Positions 10,266-59,282 of a stretch of DNA of 64,000 bases are shown one piece after another (position 1 is the stretch's first letter; each line of letters opens with the position of its first letter). Under the pieces are notes generated by a model. The model worked only from the letters and a program-made list of their open reading frames with translations. It searched no databases and was not told the DNA's origin. The position numbers were made by a program, and so were the translations under genes. The DNA comes from an uncultured Dehalococcoidia bacterium (GTDB lineage: Bacteria; Chloroflexota; Dehalococcoidia; Lucifugimonadales; UBA3495): assembly GCA_958296225.1 (NCBI GenBank), contig OY282456.1, positions 3,750,523 to 3,814,522 on the forward strand, written 5' to 3'.

Positions 10266-10732
10266 ATTGATGGAGTCAAGCAAATCCTCCAGCTGCCGGC
10301 GCGCGAAGCCGGGCAAGTTCGGGGACGCCAGACAGCGTTGCGCGAGAGCGCCGGCCGCCGTATTCTGCGCAGCCTTGCGATACAGCGCAACCGCGCTGAC
10401 GGCGGTGATGCCGTAGGTGCGCGCCTGGGCCGGGTCCAGCTCTGATAAGGCTTGCTCCTCGGCCAGCGCTGCTTTGCCGTAAAGTTGCTGAGCCCAAGCG
10501 TCCTTGCCGCTGCGGCCGGCCGCCTCGGCGTCGGAGGCGTATTTTTCGCTGCTGCTATGGCGCTCCAGCCACGTCATAACTCCTCCAAATGCGCCGGACG
10601 TATCAGGCTGGCGCGAAAGCCGACGATACCGGCAATTGCCGGGAGGTTGCTGTTCCCTTTCGCGGCCTGCGTCAGCTTGATATTCAGCCGGCGCTCAACC
10701 TGGGAAGTCGGCTTTTGCCGGCACTGCACACG

Positions 10733-11257
10733 CTAGATGACCTGCAAAAACTCTGCGGTAGTCATCACCGTGCCCTGCCGGGGGTACACCTTTTCGGTGA
10801 GCACCCGATGCACTTCCTCATCTGCGTCGGAACAGGCGTCGGAAAGCACGATGAACGTATAGTTCACGTCCACCGCCCACCGCACCGACGACAGCACGCA
10901 GCCGCTGGTGGCCACGCCCATTATCACCAGATTGTCCCGGCCCATCTCCCGCAGCGTAACATCCAGCGCCGTGGTCGAGAACGGCCCCGGCCGAACCTTC
11001 GTAATCACCAACTCCCCGGCTCCCGGTGCAACCCCCTCGTGCAGCTCCACATCAGGAGCATCCTCGGCAAACGGCCCGCCCCGATGCACCACGTAAATGA
11101 TGGGGATGCCGGCCTGCCGCGCGCCGTCCAGCGCCCTGGCGGCATTCTCAACCACCGCCGCCGGCTCCGCAGCCACGTTGGCGATAATCCGCTGCTGAAA
11201 GTCCATAATCAAAACGGCAGTCCTGCTGGCATCAATTTTCGTCGCCTGCTGCGTCAT
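10733..11257 (-). CDS. Isochorismatase-family cysteine hydrolase
   Basis: I set the start at MTQQATKID (11257), preceded by GGGAGGATGAT. Supporting motifs are AVLIMDFQ, a K in VITKVRPGPF, and VIMGVATSGCV with the catalytic Cys. Confidence 0.88.
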   Translation of the reverse strand: MTQQATKIDASRTAVLIMDFQQRIIANVAAEPAAVVENAARALDGARQAGIPIIYVVHRGGPFAEDAPDVELHEGVAPGAGELVITKVRPGPFSTTALDVTLREMGRDNLVIMGVATSGCVLSSVRWAVDVNYTFIVLSDACSDADEEVHRVLTEKVYPRQGTVMTTAEFLQVI

Positions 11258-11348
11258 ATCATCCTCCCTCAGTAATTCCAATCGCAATGCGCCGGGCCGC
11301 GCGACCCTTTCGCTGGCCGGTATTATAACGCCGCCGGCGCTAACGTGT

Positions 11349-11373
11349 GGGGGCGGGTTTCAAGCCCGCCCCC
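11349..11373. repeat. REP-like GC hairpin GGGGGCGGG-TTTCAAG-CCCGCCCCC; likely terminator
   Basis: It has a 9-bp stem just downstream of the NHL gene stop. It belongs to the same family as 7738-7760. Confidence 0.6.
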
Positions 11374-11402
11374 CAAGTCGCAGCCAAACGGCTCGCACCG
11401 CA

Positions 11403-12404
11403 TCACAGGTTCAGCGGGTGTTCCTCGTAGTCCTTCACCTTGTCGTAAATCTGGATGCGGTGCCGGTTCGCTTCCAGCACGAATATCCGGTCGTTCTCAT
11501 CTACCCGCACTGCTACCGGCCGGCGGAACCGCCATTCCGGTTCCAGATTCACCCGACGCCGCGCCTTGATGATGTCCGGGTTGGCGTCGATATAGGTCTG
11601 CGTCCACGGCGAAGGCTGTTGGGCGTCACCCACCAGGGACGTGATAAACCTCCCGTCGGGGGCGTAAACCTGCAGCCGGTGATTCCCCCAGTCGGTAACG
11701 TAAACGTCGCCTTCCGAGTCCACCGCAACGCCCGTCGGCCCGCGCAGGTCGCCGACGCCGGAGGCGGGAGAGGCTTCAAACTTCAGCAGGAAGTTGCCAT
11801 CAGAATCAAACTTCTGCACCCGGTTGTTCTCCCAGTCGGCCACGTACACACTGCCGGCGTCGTCAACGCACAGACCCCAGGGCATCTTGAACTCGCCGTC
11901 GCCCTTGCCCTGCCGTCCGAAGCCGCCCAGGAACTTGCCCGCTCTGGTGAACTTCTGCACGCGATGGTTCTGGCTATCGACGACCAGCATATTCCCGTCG
12001 GAGTCGAAAGCCATCCCGCAAGGCCCGTTCAGCTCGCCCGCGCCGCTGCCCGATTCGCCCCAGCAGGACAGAAAACCGCCCTCCGGGTCAAACACCGACA
12101 CCCGATTCAGAAAGTCATCCGCGGCGTAAACGTTGCCGTCATCGTCCAGCGTTATGGAGCGGGGCCAGACAAACTGCCCGTCGCCCCGGCCAAAAGCGCC
12201 GAACTGCCCCAGAAACTGGTGGTCCAGCGTGACCCGGCTGATGCGCTGCCCCAACTCCTCCGCGCCCCGGCTGATTACGTAAACCGTATCATCCTCAGCC
12301 AGCGCAAAGTCCTGGGGCGTCCAGAACCCCTGCCCCGACATACCGTACATACCCAGGCAGTAGCTGTAATCAAACACCCTGCCGGCGGCTACCGTAGTTA
12401 GCAT
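11403..12404 (-). CDS. NHL-repeat beta-propeller protein
   Basis: The 333-aa product repeats units such as DDDGNVYAADDFLNRVSVFD, DSDGNMLVVDSQNHRVQKF, DDAGSVYVADWENNRVQKF and DSEGDVYVTDWGNHRLQVY. Confidence 0.9.
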   Translation of the reverse strand: MLTTVAAGRVFDYSYCLGMYGMSGQGFWTPQDFALAEDDTVYVISRGAEELGQRISRVTLDHQFLGQFGAFGRGDGQFVWPRSITLDDDGNVYAADDFLNRVSVFDPEGGFLSCWGESGSGAGELNGPCGMAFDSDGNMLVVDSQNHRVQKFTRAGKFLGGFGRQGKGDGEFKMPWGLCVDDAGSVYVADWENNRVQKFDSDGNFLLKFEASPASGVGDLRGPTGVAVDSEGDVYVTDWGNHRLQVYAPDGRFITSLVGDAQQPSPWTQTYIDANPDIIKARRRVNLEPEWRFRRPVAVRVDENDRIFVLEANRHRIQIYDKVKDYEEHPLNL

Positions 12405-13682: not shown

Positions 13683-15086
13683 TTACGCAAACTGGAAGTC
13701 TCGCGACGCGGCAATCAGCGCCAGCATCACGCCAATCCGTTTCTCCGATTCGGCGGCGTCAGCTGCGGAATCCCAACGCAGTTCGCCGTCGCTGCGGGCC
13801 TGGTCCAGCAGCTCGGCGCGCGTGCCATCGCTCACGTCCAGCGGCCCCACCATCTCGAGGCAGGCGTCCACCAGCTCTTCGGGACTCAGCGCACCGCGGC
13901 CCCGCAGGTTTTTCACGATGGATTGCACGCCGGGCAAAGAAACGTCGCCCAGCAGACCGGCGGCAAAGTTCACCCGACGCACCAGCGCCCCGCCGTCAAT
14001 CCACTCGCCGCCGGTGTGCCAGCTTTCCACGCTGGGCGGGTTCAGCAGCTCCTGCCCCTGGTAGCCGCACTCAAAAGCCAGCGAGTTGAAACCGGGCCGC
14101 GGCCCATTGAAGTTGCCGGCCAGCCGCGCCGTTCCAACCACCAGTTCCGCCGGACTCTTCACCCGGCCAAACCGGGCCTGCTTGAAGAAGTCGGAATTGA
14201 ACAGCGCCCGCAGCATCGCGCGGATGTCGCCGTCCGACTCGTCGTAGGCCGCCACCAGCTGGTCAATCGCATCCGGGTCATTGGGCGGCGTAATGTTCCA
14301 GCTGGGAACCTGCGGCTCGTCGGCCACAAAAAAGTTGTACAGATGCCGCGACAGGAACCGGGCCGTAGCCGGCTGGTTCACTACGATGTCAATGATGTCC
14401 TGGCCGTCGAAATTGCCCGTATTCCCCAGGAAAGTCTTTTCCCCGTCGTCGTGGTCTTCGGGACGATACTCGAAGCTCCAGTAGAACCGGCCCAGCGGGT
14501 TGCGCGGAATCTTGGGGCCGATAGTCCACCCGGTGAACGCTCGCGAAGCTTCCTTGATGTCATCCTCCGAATAGTTGCCGACGCCCATGGAAAACAGTTC
14601 CAAAAGCTCCCGGCCCCAGTTTTCGTTGATGGCCCCCCGGTGGTTGCCGTTGTTGTCCAGCCAGAAAATCATCGCCGGATTCTGCGCCAGCTCCACCAGA
14701 AGGTCCCGAAACTTCCCCAGCCCGCAGCGGCGGAACATCACAATCTGCTGCGTCAGCTCGGGCGGATTGTCAACCTTGGCGTTGCCGGTGGCAAACAGCT
14801 GGTGCCAGAACAGCGCCATCTTTTCTTCCAAAGGCCGCTCGGTGTTCACCATCCGATAGACCCAATCAGCCTGGTTCAACGGAGGCCCCAATGCCCCTTC
14901 GTATCCGGGCAGAAAGCGGTAAAGCAATTCGTCATCCACGGGCTCGAACTGCTCCGGGTTGAGCAACTCCTCTACCGTAGCCTCGTATCCCTTGCCGGCC
15001 CGTTCCTGCAACTCATCGTGCGTCGCGCCAAAGCCGGCCCGCCGCATCAGATGGCCCATCAATGCTATGTCTTCCCGATTAGCCAT
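13683..15086 (-). CDS. DUF1800 domain protein
   Basis: The 467-aa product has HLMRRAGFGAT, MALFWHQLFATG, GKFRDLLVELAQNPAMIFWLD, and NENWGRELLELFSMGVGNYSEDDIKEASRAFTGW. The DUF1800-DUF1501 pairing is classic. Confidence 0.9.
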   Translation of the reverse strand: MANREDIALMGHLMRRAGFGATHDELQERAGKGYEATVEELLNPEQFEPVDDELLYRFLPGYEGALGPPLNQADWVYRMVNTERPLEEKMALFWHQLFATGNAKVDNPPELTQQIVMFRRCGLGKFRDLLVELAQNPAMIFWLDNNGNHRGAINENWGRELLELFSMGVGNYSEDDIKEASRAFTGWTIGPKIPRNPLGRFYWSFEYRPEDHDDGEKTFLGNTGNFDGQDIIDIVVNQPATARFLSRHLYNFFVADEPQVPSWNITPPNDPDAIDQLVAAYDESDGDIRAMLRALFNSDFFKQARFGRVKSPAELVVGTARLAGNFNGPRPGFNSLAFECGYQGQELLNPPSVESWHTGGEWIDGGALVRRVNFAAGLLGDVSLPGVQSIVKNLRGRGALSPEELVDACLEMVGPLDVSDGTRAELLDQARSDGELRWDSAADAAESEKRIGVMLALIAASRDFQFA

Positions 15087-15159
15087 CGGTTTCCCTCCTT
15101 TAAGGGATTGTTCAGTTCACTGCCAATGCAGTGCCAAATTCAGACGATGAAACGCGCCT

Positions 15160-15188
15160 ATGCTACGAAATGGGCAATCCACTGTCAA
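15160..15188 (-). promoter_or_regulatory. Predicted promoter of the DUF1800/DUF1501/NHL operon
   Basis: On the minus strand, TTGACA (15188-15183) is followed by 17 nt and TAGCAT (15165-15160), ~70 nt upstream of the ATG at 15086. The block is partly shared with the region upstream of the SBP gene at 59055. Confidence 0.5.
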
Positions 15189-15323
15189 GAAACAATCAGC
15201 TCCGGGTAGCGTCCCATTTCAGGTGGTCGGGGTTTTGCAAAGCTATTAAAGCCCTCCTGCTCCGGCGTCCCCAAAACCCGCCGCCCGCACTTTGCAACGG
15301 CCCGGCCCACTGACAACCCCCCT

Positions 15324-15352
15324 TTGACAACCGCGAACATAAGACCTATACT
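15324..15352 (+). promoter_or_regulatory. Near-consensus sigma70-type promoter driving the candidate ncRNA (copy 1)
   Basis: TTGACA (15324-15329) is followed by 17 nt and TATACT (15347-15352). The same boxes and the same spacer length are conserved at copy 2 (58742-58770, minus strand). Confidence 0.65.
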
Positions 15353-15358
15353 GTACCC

Positions 15359-15733
15359 CGTCACGTGAATCTCAGTCCAGCCAGAGGTCAACCGGTCGTC
15401 AACGGCCAGTCAGCACTAAAATCGCATACCGGCGTCGTGGAGACCCCTCGTCCAATGCTTACGCGAGAACGGTCTAACCGGCCAACAGCGACTGCCACCG
15501 CGCTGCGTGGCCGCGCCCTTAAAGCGCGGTTCACGAACCATCGGAGCAAAACTTTGCGTAAAACCCCCGGCCGTGGGGCTGACAATGACCGGTAACCTCT
15601 GGCTCGCCCACCGCATCCCGCTAACCGCCCGAACCCCGACCACCTGAACCAGCAAGGAGCATCGCCAATGAACCCAGCCCACCACCTCAGAGAAATAACC
15701 AAACCACCTGAAACGAAACGCTGCCTCAGCTCC
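15359..15733 (+). ncRNA. Candidate structured non-coding RNA of unknown class, copy 1
   Basis: There is no credible CDS here. The element has its own promoter and a long-range closing helix (15380-15397 with 15587-15603) plus nested hairpins. A near-identical inverted copy lies at 58373-58735, and one helix carries a compensatory change between copies. Confidence 0.6.
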
Positions 15734-15784
15734 GGCGCCGGTTCGAAAAGCCCCGGCGCGAGTCACTGCCGCGCCGCCGGCGGA

Positions 15785-15994
15785 CTACTCGGCAACGGGC
15801 CGTTTCCAGTAGTAATACACGAAACAGTCCGTTGGATTCTGCGGCACGAACAGCGGCAGCGCCGAAACCAGTTCCCAGCCTTCCGCTCCCCGACTGGTCA
15901 AAAATTCGTCGCTCATTGAATCAACGTTCATCCCGCCGCCGAAAAAGCCGCCCGACCTAATCGGAACCTTGTCAACCATATACTCCCATTTCAT
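15785..15994 (-). CDS. DUF4177 domain protein
   Basis: MKWEYMVDKVPIRSGGFFGG...EGWELVSALP is typical of small DUF4177 proteins. An alternative start exists at 16024. The gene lies just downstream of GMC paralogue 2. Confidence 0.7.
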   Translation of the reverse strand: MKWEYMVDKVPIRSGGFFGGGMNVDSMSDEFLTSRGAEGWELVSALPLFVPQNPTDCFVYYYWKRPVAE

Positions 15995-16073
15995 GGCAGT
16001 CCATTCCTCAGCAGGGGCAGCCACCGGGGTTGCCCCGTTTTTGCGGCGTCGCCCGGCGTTGGGCTATTGCCGC

Positions 16074-17621
16074 TTACTGGCCGGCCCGCACCCAATCGGC
16101 GCAGCGTTCGCCAATCATAATGGTGGTGCAGTTGGTGTTGGCGCGAATCACGTTGGGCATCACCGATGCGTCGGCGACTTTGATGTTTTCCAGGCCGTGG
16201 ATGTTCAGATGCTGGTCCACCACCGCCATGGCGTCGCTGGCCGGGCCCATCTTGCACGTGCCCGAGGCGTGGGTAGTGTTGAACACCGTCCGCCGCATCC
16301 AGCCGTCCAGCGCCGCGTCGGACGCCAAATCCTCCGCCGTTGGCTGCAGCACCTCGGCCACGATGGGCTGGAACGCCCCATGCTGCAGTAGGTCAACGGT
16401 AATCCGCACCGACTCCCGCAGCCGTTCCCGGTCCCGCTCCGGCTCCAGGTATCGGTAGTTCAACGACGGCTGCACGTTGGGGTCGTTGGCCGACAGCCGC
16501 ACTTCACCCGCGCCGTCCGCCAGTTCCAGGATGCAGTTGAACCGCACGCCTTCCGAATTGAACGGGTCGGCCCCGCCGATGGGCGACGAAAAGGACGACG
16601 CCGTAATCTGCATATCGTTGCGGTCGGGCGACCCGGTAGCGGTGTAGCGCAAAGCCGTCTGCGTCCGCGGCGCCAGCGGGTCCTGGGGAAAATCGTCATG
16701 CACCCGGCAAATGACCGGCACGATGGGGTGGTCGCGCAAGTTCCGGCCCACGCCGGGCAGTTCGTGAACCACCGGAATCTCCATCTCCCGCAGGTGCTCC
16801 GCCGGCCCGACGCCCGACAGCATCAGCAGCTGCGGCGACGCCATCGCCCCGGCGGAGAGGACAATCTGCCCGGCCTCCACCTGATAAACCTCGCCGCCGC
16901 TTTCCACCAGGACGCCCACGGCCCGTTTTCCTTCAAAAAGGACGCGATGCACCACTACGTTAGGCCGCACCGTCAGGTTGAGCCGGTGCCGCACCGCCCG
17001 CAGGAACGTCAAAGCAGTGCTCATCCGCACGCCCTCCGGGTTGTTCATCGGAATCGGCCCCACACCGCCGGAGTCGGGGCTGTTCATATCCACGTCTTCG
17101 GGATAGCCGGCCTCCAGGCAGGACTGAACGAAGGCTTCCTGGAAGGGCAGCCATTCCGTTTTCGGAAACCGGCGCACCGGAATCGGCCCTTCAGAGCCGT
17201 GAAAGTCGTCGCTGATGTCCAGGTCGGTTTCCATTTTGCGGAAGTAGGGCAGCACATCCACGAACGACCATTCATCGTTGCCCGCGGCGGCCCAGCCGTC
17301 ATAGTCCTCCGGCACGCCGCGCAGCAGCACCTGGCCGTTGATGGCGCTGGTGCCGCCCACCACCTTGCCCCGTGGCGCCGGCAGCATCTCCGTCTGTTCC
17401 GACGAGCCCTGCGCCCACCACGTCCAGTTGTGCGGCGCGCCCTGGGCCGAGGCGTCGGGCTTGTAGCCGTACTTCAAATCGTCGGGATAATACTCATAAT
17501 CCGGGTAGTCCGGCCCTGCTTCCAGCAGCAGCACCGACCGCTCCGGGTCTTCGGCCAGCCGGGAAGCGACTACGCAACCGCCGGAACCGGCCCCAATCAC
17601 TATCACGTCGTATTTCATCAT
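16074..17621 (-). CDS. GMC-family FAD oxidoreductase (paralogue 2)
   Basis: The 515-aa product has MMKYDVIVIGAGSGG and HASGTCKMGP...SVMPNVIRANTN. It is collinear with 8682..10220 and 39428..40963. Confidence 0.93.
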   Translation of the reverse strand: MMKYDVIVIGAGSGGCVVASRLAEDPERSVLLLEAGPDYPDYEYYPDDLKYGYKPDASAQGAPHNWTWWAQGSSEQTEMLPAPRGKVVGGTSAINGQVLLRGVPEDYDGWAAAGNDEWSFVDVLPYFRKMETDLDISDDFHGSEGPIPVRRFPKTEWLPFQEAFVQSCLEAGYPEDVDMNSPDSGGVGPIPMNNPEGVRMSTALTFLRAVRHRLNLTVRPNVVVHRVLFEGKRAVGVLVESGGEVYQVEAGQIVLSAGAMASPQLLMLSGVGPAEHLREMEIPVVHELPGVGRNLRDHPIVPVICRVHDDFPQDPLAPRTQTALRYTATGSPDRNDMQITASSFSSPIGGADPFNSEGVRFNCILELADGAGEVRLSANDPNVQPSLNYRYLEPERDRERLRESVRITVDLLQHGAFQPIVAEVLQPTAEDLASDAALDGWMRRTVFNTTHASGTCKMGPASDAMAVVDQHLNIHGLENIKVADASVMPNVIRANTNCTTIMIGERCADWVRAGQ

Positions 17622-36020: not shown

Positions 36021-36885
36021 CTAGGGCGTGTGGTCAAATTATTTTGGCCCACAGCGCCAGGGCCCGTATCTGGCAGATTGCCAGGTATGACGCCGCGTTT
36101 TTGGCATACCGCGTCGCCACACCCCGCCATTCCTTGAACTTGCAAAACCCGTTCTCCACCAAATGACGCGCCTGGTACAAATCCGCGTCATACTCCTGAG
36201 GCTCCCGCCGATTCCGCTTTGGCGGTATCACTGGCGTCATCCCCGCCCCACGGGCCGCCGCCAGCACCTTATTTGTGTCATACCCTTTATCCGCCAGCAA
36301 ATGCTCCGCCGCAAGGCCCGCAATCAGCGCCCCCGCCTGGGTACAGTCCGCCGTGGTTCCCGACGTTACCACCATCCGCACCGGCATCCCGTGGGCGTCC
36401 ACCGCCAGATGCAGTTTCGTGTTCAGCCCCCTTTGGTGCGACCGACCGCCTGATTGCCGCCCCGGGCGCCCGTGCCATGCTGGTGCACTTTGATGTAGCT
36501 GGCGTCAATCATCAGCCATTCAAAATCGGGGTCGTCAACCAGGGCTTCCTGCAATTCAGCCCAGACATTTTTATTGCGCCAGCGAATAAAGCGGCGGTGG
36601 GTGTTGCCCCAGTCGCCGTAGTCCGGGGGCAAGTCGCGCCAGGGGGCGCCGGTGCGCAGTACCCAGAACACGGCGTTGATGAAACGGCGGTTGTTCTGTG
36701 CCGGGCGTCCCACTTTGCCGGGGCCGCCGGGGAGGCGGGGTTCCAGGATTTGCCAGGCGCGGTCGGAGATGTCGTGGCGGTGATAAGCAGCAGCGGCGGT
36801 GGACACGGAATCGCCCTCCTGGTGGCAGATTGCGGCTAACAGCGCCAGTTTACCACCATATCCCCAATTTGACCACACGCCCTAG
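36021..36885 (-). mobile_element. Intact IS5-family insertion sequence (IS427/IS1031-like group), 865 bp including flanking CTAG
   Basis: Perfect 20-nt terminal inverted repeats CTAGGGCGTGTGGTCAAATT lie at 36021-36040 and 36866-36885 (reverse complement). The element is flanked by CTAG on both sides and contains a two-frame transposase. Confidence 0.9.
36034..36806 (-). CDS. IS5-family DDE transposase OrfAB, needing a -1 frameshift near 36427-36435
   Basis: OrfA starts at GTG 36806 after GGAGGG: ...YHRHDISDRAWQILEPRLPG...NNRRFINAVFWVLRTGAPWRDLPPDYG...FEWLMIDASYIKVH..GRTKGG*. OrfB in the -1 frame reads LNTKLHLAVDAHGMPVRMVVTSGTTADC...LLADKGYD...HLVENGFCKFKEWRGVATRYAK. The candidate slippery run is A AAG GGG G. 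Confidence 0.85.
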
Positions 36886-37041
36886 CGGCGTTTCGTTTTC
36901 AGTGGTCTAATCATCGGGCAAAACTTGCATACGGATTGGGATTAGCTCGGGGACGTGCAAGGAATGCCGGCGGCGGCGAATTGCCGGCGCGCGCCGCGCC
37001 GCCCGGCGTGGTAAGATTAGCCCCAGCGACAGGAGAAAACT

Positions 37042-45877: not shown

Positions 45878-46223
45878 TTGCTGCCGGCAGCGGACATAGA
45901 GCGAGGAATCGCCACCAGGCAACGCACACGTGGCAAACCGCCGTTGCCAATGGAACGCGATTGCCACGCTGCGCTCGCAATGATATTTTGCGCGCGGGCC
46001 TGACCCTTGATATGAGACGATTGCGAAACTCACGCCGCGACCCAGACGCGCCGCGCTGGTCAGCCGATATACCGGTGGCTCCCGCGGCGACGGCGTACCG
46101 GTTCAATGTGCGGCGTTCCGGCAGCCTGATTTTGGTCCACTTGCGTTGGGTCATGCGCTATTGCTCTTGGCCTGGCTAGGGTCTGTTTACATTCAACCCC
46201 CTCACCCAGGATGGTACCCAAAG

Positions 46224-47126
46224 CTAGCTGGTTGGCTCGCTGCGAGCAGAAACCCGGAGTAATTCTTCTCCGTTTCCTTTGTAATCCGGGCTGAAAGCGA
46301 GGATGCCAGCGATGTTTGCATATCTAGATCTCTCCTCATCTGTTTCGTGAGATGGTTGTATCGTTTGGATTCTGCCGCTTTCCTTTTCAGTCAATGTAAC
46401 TGTCCTTAAAATCGGGGCTGGCCATATTGTATGTTGGTGTCCCACGGCTGGAGGAAATGCGATTGTAGGTAGTCTGCCTACGTTTTCGGTTCCTGGTTCT
46501 GGGATGTACCTGGCTTGTTGGTGTTCTTCTCCGATTTGTATGTCTATCCTGTTTTTCTCCCATACGAGGTCTTTTACCCAGCCGGTTCTCCTCAACTCTT
46601 TGTAGTTTTCGCCGTATGCTCTGAATAGGTCTGCTATGTGGAATAGGTGTCCCATTTCACCCACTGCTGCCCCTTTTGCGGTCCCTTTCTTTCCTACTAT
46701 CATTGTTCCGTAGCCGATTGCTCGTTTGTATAGTCTGGTGCTGAAGTACTTGGATTCTCTGTCTCGGCTTTTATCTGGCCTTATAGTGGATACAAGACAG
46801 GCGTATCCGTCGTCATCTATCAGTATTGCGTGGCAGGGGCATTGAAACTTGGGGAAACTTTTCCATATTTGTCCGAACCTCTTTACGTTGCAGTCTGATC
46901 ACATTACTTGTTGGTTATACAGGTTTCCGTACAGTTGAGCTTGTACTTCCTTAGGGCAGTGCTTGATAAAGGCTTTGGGGATCAGGTGGTCTTTCGTGAT
47001 CTCCTCTTTCTGTATTGGTTGATGGCATCCGCCGATGTGGGTGCCACAGAGTCCTTTGTCTCTTGAGAACAGTTGGTCTCTGTTGAGTTCCTCTCTCTTT
47101 TTGTTCATGCTTTCTTTCCTTGTCAT
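46224..47126 (-). pseudogene. HNH-nuclease-domain ORF (300 codons) interrupted by one in-frame TGA at 46899-46901; low-G+C island
   Basis: The 75-aa ORF (CGTHIGGC...TKDHLIPKA...NLYNQQVM*) and the downstream 224-codon frame (SDCNVKR...) are in the same frame. The TGA sits where the first Cys of the second CxxCNxxK zinc knuckle is expected. There is no start codon for 65 codons after the TGA. Confidence 0.7.
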
Positions 47127-47518
47127 TGTACTCCAGTCGGTGCTGATTGACCGCTAGTGTAACCGGTCGGGACCGGTTTCCGGCGTGGCCGTAGGACCAC
47201 GCCGGGGCCTGTCTGCGGTGACGCCAGGGGAATGGGTTGGCGGCGCCCGGGTAGCCCGGGGGTTAGTGTTTCACGCTCAGACGAATGCGCAACTGATTCG
47301 CGGTTCGAGGTTGCGTTCTGTGGTGAGTGAGTATTACGGGATACGCAACGCGGGTTCACCTTTGTGGGGGAGCGAATTCGTCTGACCTGCTGGCCGTGGG
47401 CGCAGTGCCGTGGCCTTTTCCCGTCTCACGGGCACGTAATCTACTCCTGGCCCAGCATTGTACTGCTGGGGCGTAGTTTCGCAATTTTCTGCTTGATATA
47501 AAGTCCTCTTGACACTGT
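47127..47518 (-). ncRNA. Candidate highly structured 5' leader or ncRNA upstream of the HNH ORF
   Basis: This GC-rich ~390 nt lies between a predicted promoter and the HNH ATG. Stems include 47161-47178, 47180-47205 (9 bp perfect), 47246-47260, the long-range pair 47277-47286 with 47376-47385, the nested pair 47310-47316 with 47343-47349, and further stem-loops near 47420-47435 and 47448-47470. Strand assignment rests on the promoter only. Confidence 0.4.
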
Positions 47519-52440: not shown

Positions 52441-52544
52441 GAGCCGCCGCGTAGCATAGCCTTTCGGTTTTCATTGCTATTGCCTCGACCATACCCGACC
52501 TGTACACTCGCGCCCAGGCTGGCCTCTGCCGGGAGGTGTAACGA

Positions 52545-58372: not shown

Positions 58373-58735
58373 GGAGCTGTTGGGCAGCGTTCCGTTTCAG
58401 GTGGTTTGGTTATTTCTCTGAGATGGTGGGCTGGGTTCATTGGCAATGCTCCTTGCTGGTTCAGGCGGTTGGCGGGATGGGGTGGGCGGGCCAGAGGTTA
58501 CCGGTCATTGTCAGCCCCACGGCCGGGGGATTTACGCAAAGTTTTGCTCCGATGGTTCGTGAACTGCGCTTTTAAGGGCGCAGCCACGCAGCGCGGTGGC
58601 AGTCGCTGTTGGCCGGTTAGACCGTACTCGCGTAAGCATTGGACGAGGGGTCTCCACGACGCCGGTATGCGATTTTAGTGCTGACTGGCCGTTGACGACC
58701 GGTTGACCTCTGGCTGGACTGAGATTCACGTGATA
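58373..58735 (-). ncRNA. Candidate structured non-coding RNA of unknown class, copy 2 (inverted relative to copy 1)
   Basis: The reverse complement aligns with 15359-15733. The 242-nt core differs at only five positions, two of which convert a C-G pair to U-A in the same hairpin (58564-58583). Confidence 0.6.
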
Positions 58736-58741
58736 GATTGC

Positions 58742-58770
58742 AGTATAGTACCGATGTTCGCGGTTGTCAA
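58742..58770 (-). promoter_or_regulatory. Near-consensus promoter of ncRNA copy 2
   Basis: On the minus strand, TTGACA (58770-58765) is followed by 17 nt and TATACT (58747-58742). The hexamers are identical to copy 1. Confidence 0.65.
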
Positions 58771-58846
58771 AGGGGGGTTGTCAGTGGGCCGGCGCAAAGT
58801 GCGGGCGGCGGGTTTTGGGGACGCCAGAGTGCTACCCCTCTCCCAA

Positions 58847-58930
58847 CCCTCTCCCACAAGGGGAGAGGGCTACCTGCGCTGGGCGGAGCGCAACTGCCCT
58901 TTCCCAACCCTCTCGCTTTGCGGGAGAGGG
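58847..58930. repeat. Two REP-like CCCTCTC..GAGAGGG hairpins inserted in the intergenic block
   Basis: The first, CCCTCTCCC-ACAAG-GGGAGAGGG (58847-58869), is perfect. The second, CCCTCTCGC-TTT-GCGGGAGAGGG (58908-58930), is imperfect. Both are absent from the homologous block next to copy 1. Confidence 0.7.
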
Positions 58931-59054
58931 CTTTAATGACTTTGCAAGCTGCGCGGTGGGACGGCTCTTATCGCAACCTCTATCCCTGACGGCAAGAGCG
59001 GCATCCCTGACTTTGCAAAGCCCCGACCGCCGGCAACGGAACGCTACCGAGCTA

Positions 59055-59082
59055 TTGACACCGGTCGCGTTGCTAGTATAGA
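59055..59082 (+). promoter_or_regulatory. Possible promoter of the peptide-type ABC operon
   Basis: TTGACA (59055-59060) is followed by 16 nt and TATAGA. The surrounding ctttgcaaa..ccccgacc..acgctacc..gagct..ttgaca block is shared with the DUF1800 promoter region. The ATG lies ~200 nt downstream. Confidence 0.35.
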
Positions 59083-59282
59083 TTCTGTCAAGCTTTACGA
59101 ATGACGGTTCGTGACCGGTTTGGGCTGATGTGCGCGACATTCAGCATAAAATCGACCGCGTGGTTTCATAACGAACGGCATCTGCCGGGATCGTTATTGA
59201 CTAGAGCTTTCCCGGATTCATCGGCAGCTGGCAGCCTGGCCCGCGGTCGCCGATAGGAAAATTAGAGTCTGGAGGTCTGGTA

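Follow-up and report, generated by a model that had tools for sequence, protein, structure and literature searches.

A structured RNA leader of a HEPN-like gene family in Chloroflexota, probably captured with its promoter by a miniature inverted-repeat transposable element

The genome of an uncultured Dehalococcoidia bacterium of the phylum Chloroflexota (assembly GCA_958296225.1) contains, on contig OY282456.1, a 64,000-nucleotide stretch (positions 3,750,523 to 3,814,522 of the forward strand) that we refer to as the window. Within it, a gap of about 700 nt separates a DUF1800 operon from a convergent DUF4177 gene and holds a 521-bp element, copy 1 (15205-15725, plus strand), that carries a promoter and an RNA domain with multiple helices and contains no conserved open reading frame (ORF). 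A previous reading of this DNA, made from the sequence alone (the sequence-only reading), described positions 15324-15733 as a promoter-equipped, ~370-nt structured RNA of no recognizable class that did not look like the 5′ untranslated region (UTR) of a downstream operon. Here, we report an analysis of this element, of its second copy in the window and of its relatives in other genomes. The observation itself is confirmed and its interpretation is partly supported: the RNA is a real, conserved, elaborately folded and previously undescribed family, and the element that carries it at this locus is probably the promoter and structured 5′ leader of a small Chloroflexota gene, captured between the ends of a miniature inverted-repeat transposable element (MITE).

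The promoter is of the sigma-70 type and consists of TTGACA (15324-15329), a 17-nt spacer and TATACT (15347-15352) on the plus strand, with 11 of 12 hexamer positions matched and coordinates identical to those reported before. Two promoter-like sites were found in 1.3 kb, where 0.3 would be expected. Both hexamers are the same in all five copies of the type found in the window (window-type copies), with variation confined to the spacer and discriminator, and a promoter is found at the equivalent position in five other lineages. High conservation among copies sets in at 15361, 9 nt past the −10 hexamer, which suggests that transcription starts near 15359-15361 and that the transcript opens with a short single-stranded stretch (15361-15379). 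The folded domain that follows occupies 224 nt (15380-15603), rather than the ~370 nt previously proposed; the remainder is an unstructured, C-rich, G-poor spacer (15604-15653), which differs from copy 2 by a 15-nt indel, and the remnant of a gene (15654-15688), comprising a Shine-Dalgarno (SD) sequence AAGGAG (15654-15659), an ATG (15668-15670) and the first seven codons, MNPAHHL. Between P1 and the start codon, C amounts to 48% and G to 19%; across the entire tail (15604-15726), the values are 43% and 16%. Of the features of a stand-alone small RNA gene, a conserved promoter of its own is present, and no intrinsic terminator was found on the plus strand of 15324-15733 or elsewhere within the element.

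In our alignment, the structured core on the plus strand is organized into helices P1 (15380-15388 with 15595-15603), P2 (15394-15399 with 15585-15590), P3 (15409-15413 with 15579-15583), P4 (15423-15427 with 15554-15558), Pa (15429-15432 with 15478-15481), P5 (15442-15474), P6 (15486-15505), P7 (15506-15535, of which the distal part, P7b, was tabulated separately) and P8 (15565-15578). A candidate pseudoknot joins ACGGCC in J2/3 (15402-15407) to the P8 loop GGCCGU (15569-15574). The two halves of the closing helix described previously, GCCAGAGGUCAACCGGUC (15380-15397) and GACCGGUAACCUCUGGC (15587-15603), are both present and have been renumbered as P1 (9 bp) and P2 (6-8 bp), with GUCAGC/GCUGAC, now P3, nested inside. 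Across lineages, the RNA has about 13 helices, and the distance between the two strands of P1 ranges from 224 to 390 nt.

Thermodynamics alone do not set the fold apart from chance (minimum free energy z-score −1.18 on the plus strand and −0.28 on the minus strand), so that its support comes from the comparison of homologues, in which structure-preserving substitutions were looked for and are present. Twelve leaders from six lineages were aligned by hand into P1, P2, P3, P4, Pa, P5a/b, P6, P7a/b and P8. Over 62 pairs, a count that excludes the five pairs of P7b because MAFFT shifted this region, 98.3% of the 717 cells can pair, compared with 28-40% when the 3′ partners are slid by 1-3 columns. 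Changes on both sides occur at 11 pairs, as against 0-3 in the slid controls, and none of 500 shuffles reaches 11. This covariation is concentrated in P5b (six of seven pairs) and in P7a, which displays G-C, G·U, A-U and C-G at one position and C-G or U-A at another; P4, Pa and P8 contribute one pair each. In the separate tabulation, P7b varies in every lineage and bears a variable tip of 8-122 nt; even among the window-type copies, one of its pairs appears as C-G, U·G and U-A. From the same alignment, RNAalifold derives P1, P3, P5a, P5b, P6, P7a, P8 and a variant of Pa, that is, eight helices with 11 double-change pairs. The G·U pairs in P2, P5 and P7 occur only when the RNA is read in the sense of the promoter, which fixes the strand.

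Among the local hairpins proposed earlier, CCGCGC-CCUUAAA-GCGCGG (15511-15529; P7b) and CCCC-GGCCGU-GGGG (P8) are present in the sequence. The third, GCAA-AACU-UUGC, is also there, but comparison does not support it: its 3′ half pairs with CGCA(U) at 15423-15427 to form P4, and the hairpin loses a pair in exactly those lineages in which P4 gains one. Another set of mutually exclusive pairings involves GGUCG, which can pair with either CGGCC or CGACC.

No match to a described RNA was found. Across the 64 kb of the window, Rfam 15 (4227 families) yields no match at the gathering threshold, and scans of 15050-15850 and of two homologous leaders (L017 and L012) return unrelated noise only at E ≤ 10. 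A tRNA or tmRNA identity was rejected, given that ARAGORN finds no gene in the window. Scans with exact 19-20-mers gave no match in the genome collection and nine loci in the metagenome collection, all due to chance (the stretch used spans a 1-nt deletion in one of the other copies, L010). A protein search with all six reading frames joined into one query matched nothing, and neither literature searches on this RNA and element nor searches of viral contigs and a viral fold library gave anything specific. A promoter-equipped, non-coding, structured RNA that belongs to no Rfam 15 family, as the sequence-only reading had it, is thus supported.

That reading overlooked the boundaries of the repeated unit, which is a mobile cassette enclosed by inverted repeats and 9-bp target duplications. 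In copy 1, the left duplication TCAGCTCCG (15196-15204, plus strand) lies just outside the inverted repeats and recurs exactly at 15726-15734 (plus strand), where a repeat finder places the right duplication, TCAGCTCCG. The left inverted repeat (IR-L), GGTAGCGTCCCATTTCAGGTGGTCGGGGTTTT (15205-15236), is 75% complementary over 32 nt to the right one (IR-R), AATAACCAAACCACCTGAAACGAAACGCTGCC (15694-15725), and homology between copies stops exactly at 15725. The existence of a second copy is likewise confirmed (58373-58829, minus strand; 90.6% identity over 477 nt). Its element extends over 58383-59048 on the minus strand, from IR-L (59048-59026) to IR-R (58405-58383), and includes the −35 (58770-58765) and −10 (58747-58742) hexamers, the core (58714-58490), the SD sequence (58454) and the ATG (58440). 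Between IR-L and the promoter of copy 2, a 71-nt duplication and, at 58836-58932, two hairpins resembling repetitive extragenic palindromes (REP) have been inserted. The flanking repeats of this copy, CAATAGCTC on the left (59049-59057, minus strand) and, from a repeat search, CAACAGCTC on the right (58374-58382, minus strand), share eight of nine positions. Neither window copy has the gene; each retains the start codon and the first seven codons, ending at the right inverted repeat.

The element ends conform to the consensus GG(C/T)AGCGTTCCGTTTCAGGTGG, that is, GG(C/T)AGCG ends, and the only exact occurrences of the end motif GGYAGCGTYYCRTT in the window are the four ends of copies 1 and 2. 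Ends of the IR-L type are found also in two related loci (L010 and L015) and in mini-elements of 113-123 bp. Besides the 32-nt arms of copy 1, there are 23-nt arms with 83% complementarity in copy 2, and the terminal repeat of L010 is perfect over 14 bp. The length of the target duplication is 9 bp throughout, with 9/9 positions identical in copy 1, 8/9 in copy 2 and 6/9 in L010, and exact duplications of GAAAACCGA in L015b, the second leader-bearing element of L015, and of CACTGACAA in a mini-element. A solo stretch in a divergent intergenic region at 36884-36906, AGCGGCGTTTCGTTTTCAGTGGT, resembles these ends with six mismatches to the consensus and could be a decayed end or a chance occurrence.

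Elements with these ends, with or without the leader as cargo, have moved recently, as seen from empty and filled sites in the window and in L015, from a genome that aligns collinearly with the window over 20 kb, with 97-98% identity. At 52464-52472, the window has an empty target site where L015 carries L015b (L015 9503-10372; 870 bp), flanked by duplicated GAAAACCGA (L015 strand) and composed of IR-L, the promoter, the leader, the first ~83 codons of the gene and a mini-element that ends in IR-R. The orthologue of copy 2 (L015a) lies at L015 2740-3546 and has, 15 nt upstream of its −35 hexamer, a 123-bp mini-element (L015 3021-3143) with a 9-10-bp duplication that is also missing from the window. 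Presence-absence polymorphism was thus seen at 52464-52472 and at the mini-element of copy 2, not at the site of copy 1 itself. Mini-elements of 113-123 bp, consisting of little beyond two ends, occur in L011, a Dehalococcoidia genome described below, and in L015. Each half of such a mini-element has its counterpart in the window elements, one in their left ~70 nt and the other in their right ~38 nt, with the leader, start codon and seven codons in between. Inverted repeats, a duplication of fixed length, an empty site and small size with no transposase are what is found in a MITE or a mobile insertion cassette (MIC).

The origin of the RNA becomes apparent outside the window. An antisense ORF at 15388-15702 was rejected as a protein, the sole matching database "protein" being a single spurious call, and that one match, retrieved with the ORF as the query, pointed to L010, a third copy located on a metagenomic contig of 2.1 Mb. 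Used in a degenerate-pattern scan of species-representative genomes, the same pseudo-protein led to L011, the chromosome of a Dehalococcoidia bacterium (a metagenome-assembled genome). The L011 homologue is diverged, sharing the promoter position, the closing helix and a 43-nt block of 93% identity, and the ORF behind its SD sequence is an intact gene of 188 amino acids instead of a stump. Four further subgroups of the protein were sampled (L012; L016; L017; L018-L021), each with a non-coding stretch of 620-760 nt in front of the gene. The leaders have the same order of parts: TTGAC(A/G), 17-18 nt and a −10 hexamer; a short single-stranded 5′ stretch; a domain enclosed by P1, which in the gene-linked leaders is GCCAGAGGUGAU/AUCACCUCUGGC; a spacer; and AAGGAG followed by the start codon. 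In the gene-linked leaders, the spacer from P1 to the SD sequence is 49-136 nt long, and its C/A-rich composition with 8-20% G is common to all lineages.

The leader accordingly precedes the gene, complete or truncated, in L011, L012, L016, L017, L018-L021 and L015b and is an orphan in L010, in L015a and in both window copies; the gene itself does not occur anywhere in the 64 kb of the window. The sequence-only reading had set aside a 5′ UTR on the grounds that the RNA runs toward the 3′ end of a convergent gene, and both window copies do point at such a 3′ end. However, promoter and fold lie directly upstream of a gene of about 188 codons in L011, L012, L016, L017 and L018-L021, at a distance of 50-140 nt. 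Because they precede a conserved gene in five other lineages, the RNA is, as judged from sequence comparison, a 5′ leader by origin. The inverted repeats seem to have a different source: the leader-gene units of L012, L017 and L018 have no end motif nearby, so that the repeats belong to a separate MITE family.

The gene is always followed by a co-directional oxidoreductase gene, which encodes a GMC oxidoreductase, a luciferase-like monooxygenase (three times), a short-chain dehydrogenase or a 2-hydroxyacid dehydrogenase. The GMC oxidoreductase is that of L012 (region 10696-12240); in the window, a GMC oxidoreductase lies next to copy 1 (region 15785-17621), convergent and behind the DUF4177 gene. 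Nothing alignable to the leader was found upstream of another family member, P0009 (L013/L014), which has an IS5-like insertion sequence (IS) directly in front of it; the region upstream of this gene is an IS cluster (L013 3987-9715) that includes IS5-like DDE_Tnp_1 with DUF4096, IS110-type and DDE_Tnp_1_4 elements.

The L011 protein has 57 homologues, similar to it in length and with a conserved N-terminus, MNP[AST]HHL[DNE]RS. The family is small and narrow, as a profile search of 1.84 billion representative proteins returned 114 members. The proteins are basic (isoelectric point 9-11) and have no match in Pfam, NCBIfam, PADLOC or PDB sequences. An AlphaFold (AF2) model is all-helical (mean confidence, pLDDT, 89.6), and its best fold matches in the PDB are the HEPN proteins 2hsb, 1ufb, 2q00 and 1o3u, with target-normalized TM scores of 0.5-0.74 and weak E-values of 0.02-0.2. 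The protein may have the four-helix up-down bundle of HEPN domains. The canonical HEPN motif Rx4-6H is absent, with no conserved R...H of 4-6 spacing in the last helix of the bundle, and the family has instead an invariant pair in helix 2, R35-x3-H39. Window-type genomes have several copies of the gene, often in truncated form. In the clusters of P0025 and P0054-P0056, each of two large contigs has two different full-length copies of 189 amino acids, and the truncated members, P0054-P0056, P0062 and P0063 among them, include stumps of 84, 91, 114, 118 and 160 amino acids.

Taken together, these observations lead us to consider it likely that copies 1 and 2 are the promoter and structured 5′ leader of the small HEPN-like gene, captured between MITE ends, inserted with 9-bp duplications and copied without the gene. 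The gene-less, stand-alone look of the RNA is specific to this window and results from mobilization; it is not the native arrangement. At copy 1, RNA polymerase would start near 15360, and the first ~245 nt of the transcript would fold into the multi-helix domain closed by P1. With no terminator found, transcription would run on through the C-rich, G-poor spacer and IR-R into the flanking DNA, antisense to the 3′ ends of the DUF4177 gene (copy 1) and of a 1262-aa ArsP/PD40 gene (copy 2), and, in L010, in the sense direction into a TylF-type methyltransferase gene. For the native setting, we favor a domain that acts in cis and senses either a metabolite or the basic HEPN-like protein; the protein as the ligand is a plausible guess. 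Such a sensor would control transcription into the gene or its translation. The most plausible route is the unstructured C-rich spacer, where Rho could load or ribosomes gain access, given that no terminator or SD-sequestering helix is seen.

Several points weigh against this interpretation or limit it. No expression platform was found: 15324-15733 has no intrinsic terminator on the plus strand, and inspection of the leaders and spacers by eye revealed no conserved pairing to the SD sequence, so that the proposed mode of regulation is a guess. The structural alignment, a manual one fitted to the structure, covers only six lineages. RNAalifold omits P4 and favors a local hairpin over P2, and P1, P2, P3, P6 and the pseudoknot never vary and are therefore neither supported nor refuted by covariation. 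Neither the window nor the loci examined showed a transposase between such repeats, and the start of transcription, the 3′ end and the stability of the RNA are predictions from the sequence. Finally, the low divergence of the core described next could stem from gene conversion with gene-linked copies instead of selection.

The pattern of divergence among the orphan copies bears on whether they have retained a function. Between copy 1 and each of the four other window-type copies, the core (15361-15603) has diverged by 1.6-4% and the rest of the element by 15-17% (Fisher p 4e-9 to 1e-5), whereas none of the 12 promoter hexamer positions differs. Roughly seven single changes are seen among the five copies, all in unpaired columns, although paired ones make up half of the total; paired positions have changed only in one P7b pair, on both of its sides. 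This uneven divergence argues for selection on a transcribed, folded RNA. The orthologous orphans, copy 2 and L015a, are 97.7% identical, which is too similar for the pair to decide on constraint.

The most serious alternative, which we regard as possible but clearly not favored, is that the window copies are dead passengers, fragments of leader-gene units cut off by MITE activity that resemble each other because of recent copying or gene conversion. The gene is indeed missing, the reading frame past codon 7 differs from copy to copy, with a 22-nt deletion at this point in L010, the family is rich in truncated members, copy 2 has accumulated nested insertions and the one syntenic pair is uninformative on constraint. 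Against this stand the intact −35 and −10 hexamers in all five copies amid variable surroundings, a core that has diverged 4-10 times less than other parts of the same element and the fact that no change disrupts a helix; moreover, recent copying predicts ends as similar as the core, and the ends are less similar. In the interpretation that we favor, the orphan copies are most likely transposition passengers that are still transcribed and that may serve as decoys, trans-acting RNAs or outward promoters.

The leader might instead be a new class of metabolite-binding riboswitch, the orphans being incidental or ligand sponges. This is a doubtful proposition, even though several features are of the kind expected: the multi-helix domain is large and highly conserved, its junctions are invariant, a loop may form a pseudoknot with a junction, the RNA is fixed in the 5′ UTR of one gene family that is invariably followed by an oxidoreductase gene, and GGUCG has mutually exclusive pairing partners. 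There is neither a terminator nor a helix that sequesters the SD sequence, the spacer is long and variable, the regulated protein has no metabolic annotation and the family is very small. Still more speculative, and in our opinion improbable, is that the RNA and the HEPN-like protein form a new two-component system, in which the RNA would serve an RNA-directed protein as antidote, inhibitor or cofactor and MITEs would spread additional copies of it, each with its own promoter, or that it represents a novel class of riboswitch with an aptamer turned into a mobile, stand-alone transcript.

Another unlikely reading has the element acting chiefly as DNA, as a portable promoter that fires outward into whatever lies past the right end. 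The near-consensus promoter is aimed at IR-R with no terminator before the element end, the L010 element is located 80 nt upstream of, and co-directional with, the methyltransferase gene, and the window copies would produce antisense transcripts over the 3′ ends of two genes. What this leaves unexplained is the 224-nt folded RNA, conserved far above the rest of the element, and the presence of the same fold in lineages that lack the inverted repeats. We find it distinctly unlikely that the RNA acts in trans on the HEPN-like protein, be it as an antitoxin or inhibitor akin to those of type III toxin-antitoxin systems or as a cofactor, with the orphans providing extra, independently expressed doses. 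The position of the RNA directly upstream of a basic protein with a HEPN-like fold and their predicted co-transcription, the multiple and often uncoupled copies of gene and RNA in window-type genomes, and the strong promoters retained by the orphans would fit such a partnership; the absence of tandem repeats as in type III systems, of a terminator between RNA and gene, of the canonical HEPN motif (replaced by R35-x3-H39) and of any PADLOC match, along with the weakness of the fold match, speaks against it. That the region encodes a small protein, either from the SD-led ORF at 15668 or from an ORF across the core, is barely credible in spite of a good SD sequence and ATG and of open frames on both strands, because indels of 1, 15 and 22 nt among the copies disrupt each long ORF, with 1-nt indels shifting all long frames of the core and the SD-led ORF, whose homology to the HEPN-like gene ceases past codon 7, coding for 83 amino acids in copy 1 and 33 in copy 2 and being frameshifted by the 22-nt deletion in L010, and none of the ORFs matches Pfam; the sequence-only reading had likewise seen no credible coding sequence here.

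Bacterial MITEs that carry promoters or give rise to RNAs include the Correia elements of Neisseria, ERIC and RUP. Like these, the window elements are short, non-autonomous and multicopy, have inverted repeats and target duplications, reside in intergenic regions near promoters and contain a functional-looking promoter from which a folded RNA would be transcribed. They differ in the 9-bp duplication and in their interior, a captured promoter and a 224-nt leader domain that exists independently elsewhere, and, to our knowledge, have no sequence relation to these families. In MICs, such as MIC231 of Bacillus cereus, IS ends flank passenger DNA devoid of a transposase. The elements described here similarly have transposon ends that bracket a passenger mobilized in trans, with minis made of ends only (113-123 bp) beside loaded forms (521-870 bp), but the window-type passenger is a promoter and a non-coding leader, with or without a gene stump, instead of an intact gene.

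On the RNA side, orphan leader motifs, such as the raiA motif and others of the Weinberg/Breaker type, likewise have a multi-helix domain, covariation, invariant junctions and a constant place in the 5′ UTR of a single gene family; the present RNA is distinguished by having no recognizable expression platform, by its HEPN-like partner gene and by gene-less mobile copies. The resemblance to type III (ToxIN-like) toxin-antitoxin and HEPN ribonuclease systems lies in a non-coding RNA directly upstream of, and predicted to be co-transcribed with, a small basic protein and in the HEPN fold class, which often acts on RNA; the differences are those listed above for a trans-acting partner, with no tandem repeats, no intervening terminator, no Rx4-6H and no PADLOC match here. 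What is new is a structured leader family outside Rfam and a MITE with a promoter and leader domain as its cargo.

A large, conserved structured RNA new to Rfam is thereby tied to an uncharacterized, narrowly distributed HEPN-like family, which provides a concrete RNA-protein pair in Chloroflexota, a phylum with very little RNA biology. The elements are an unusually clear case of a bacterial MITE that captures and spreads a promoter together with a complex regulatory RNA domain and, if the orphan copies are functional, illustrate a route from a cis-regulatory domain to a trans-acting RNA gene. They also call for caution, in that an apparent stand-alone RNA gene in one window can be a displaced 5′ leader.

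The elements tend to adjoin −35 boxes, as at 15160-15204 and 59049-59085 in the window, L015 3005-3020 and L011 10434-10454. On its left side, copy 1 comes within 16 nt of the −35 of a promoter-like site that points the other way and would serve the DUF1800 operon, the left flank repeat of copy 2 overlaps TTGACA-16-TATAGA facing an SBP_bac_5 gene, and two mini-elements sit directly upstream of the leader's own −35. There may be a target preference for DNA upstream of promoters. Families of short REP-like palindromes (CCCTCTCCC...GGGAGAGGG, GTCATTCCCGCGAAAGCGGGAATC and CTCATCCTGAGCCTGTCGAAGGA) occur at 58836-58932 in the window and in the leaders of L016-L018, and are scattered in L011, L012, L016 and L017; within the leader, their insertion sites are J2/1 and the variable P7 tip. 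Elsewhere in the window, ~1.5 kb at 46008-47500 is absent from L015 and looks like a small inserted island, with minus-strand ORFs of 159 and 75 amino acids, the shorter of which has an HNH-like CxxH...DHLIPK pattern.

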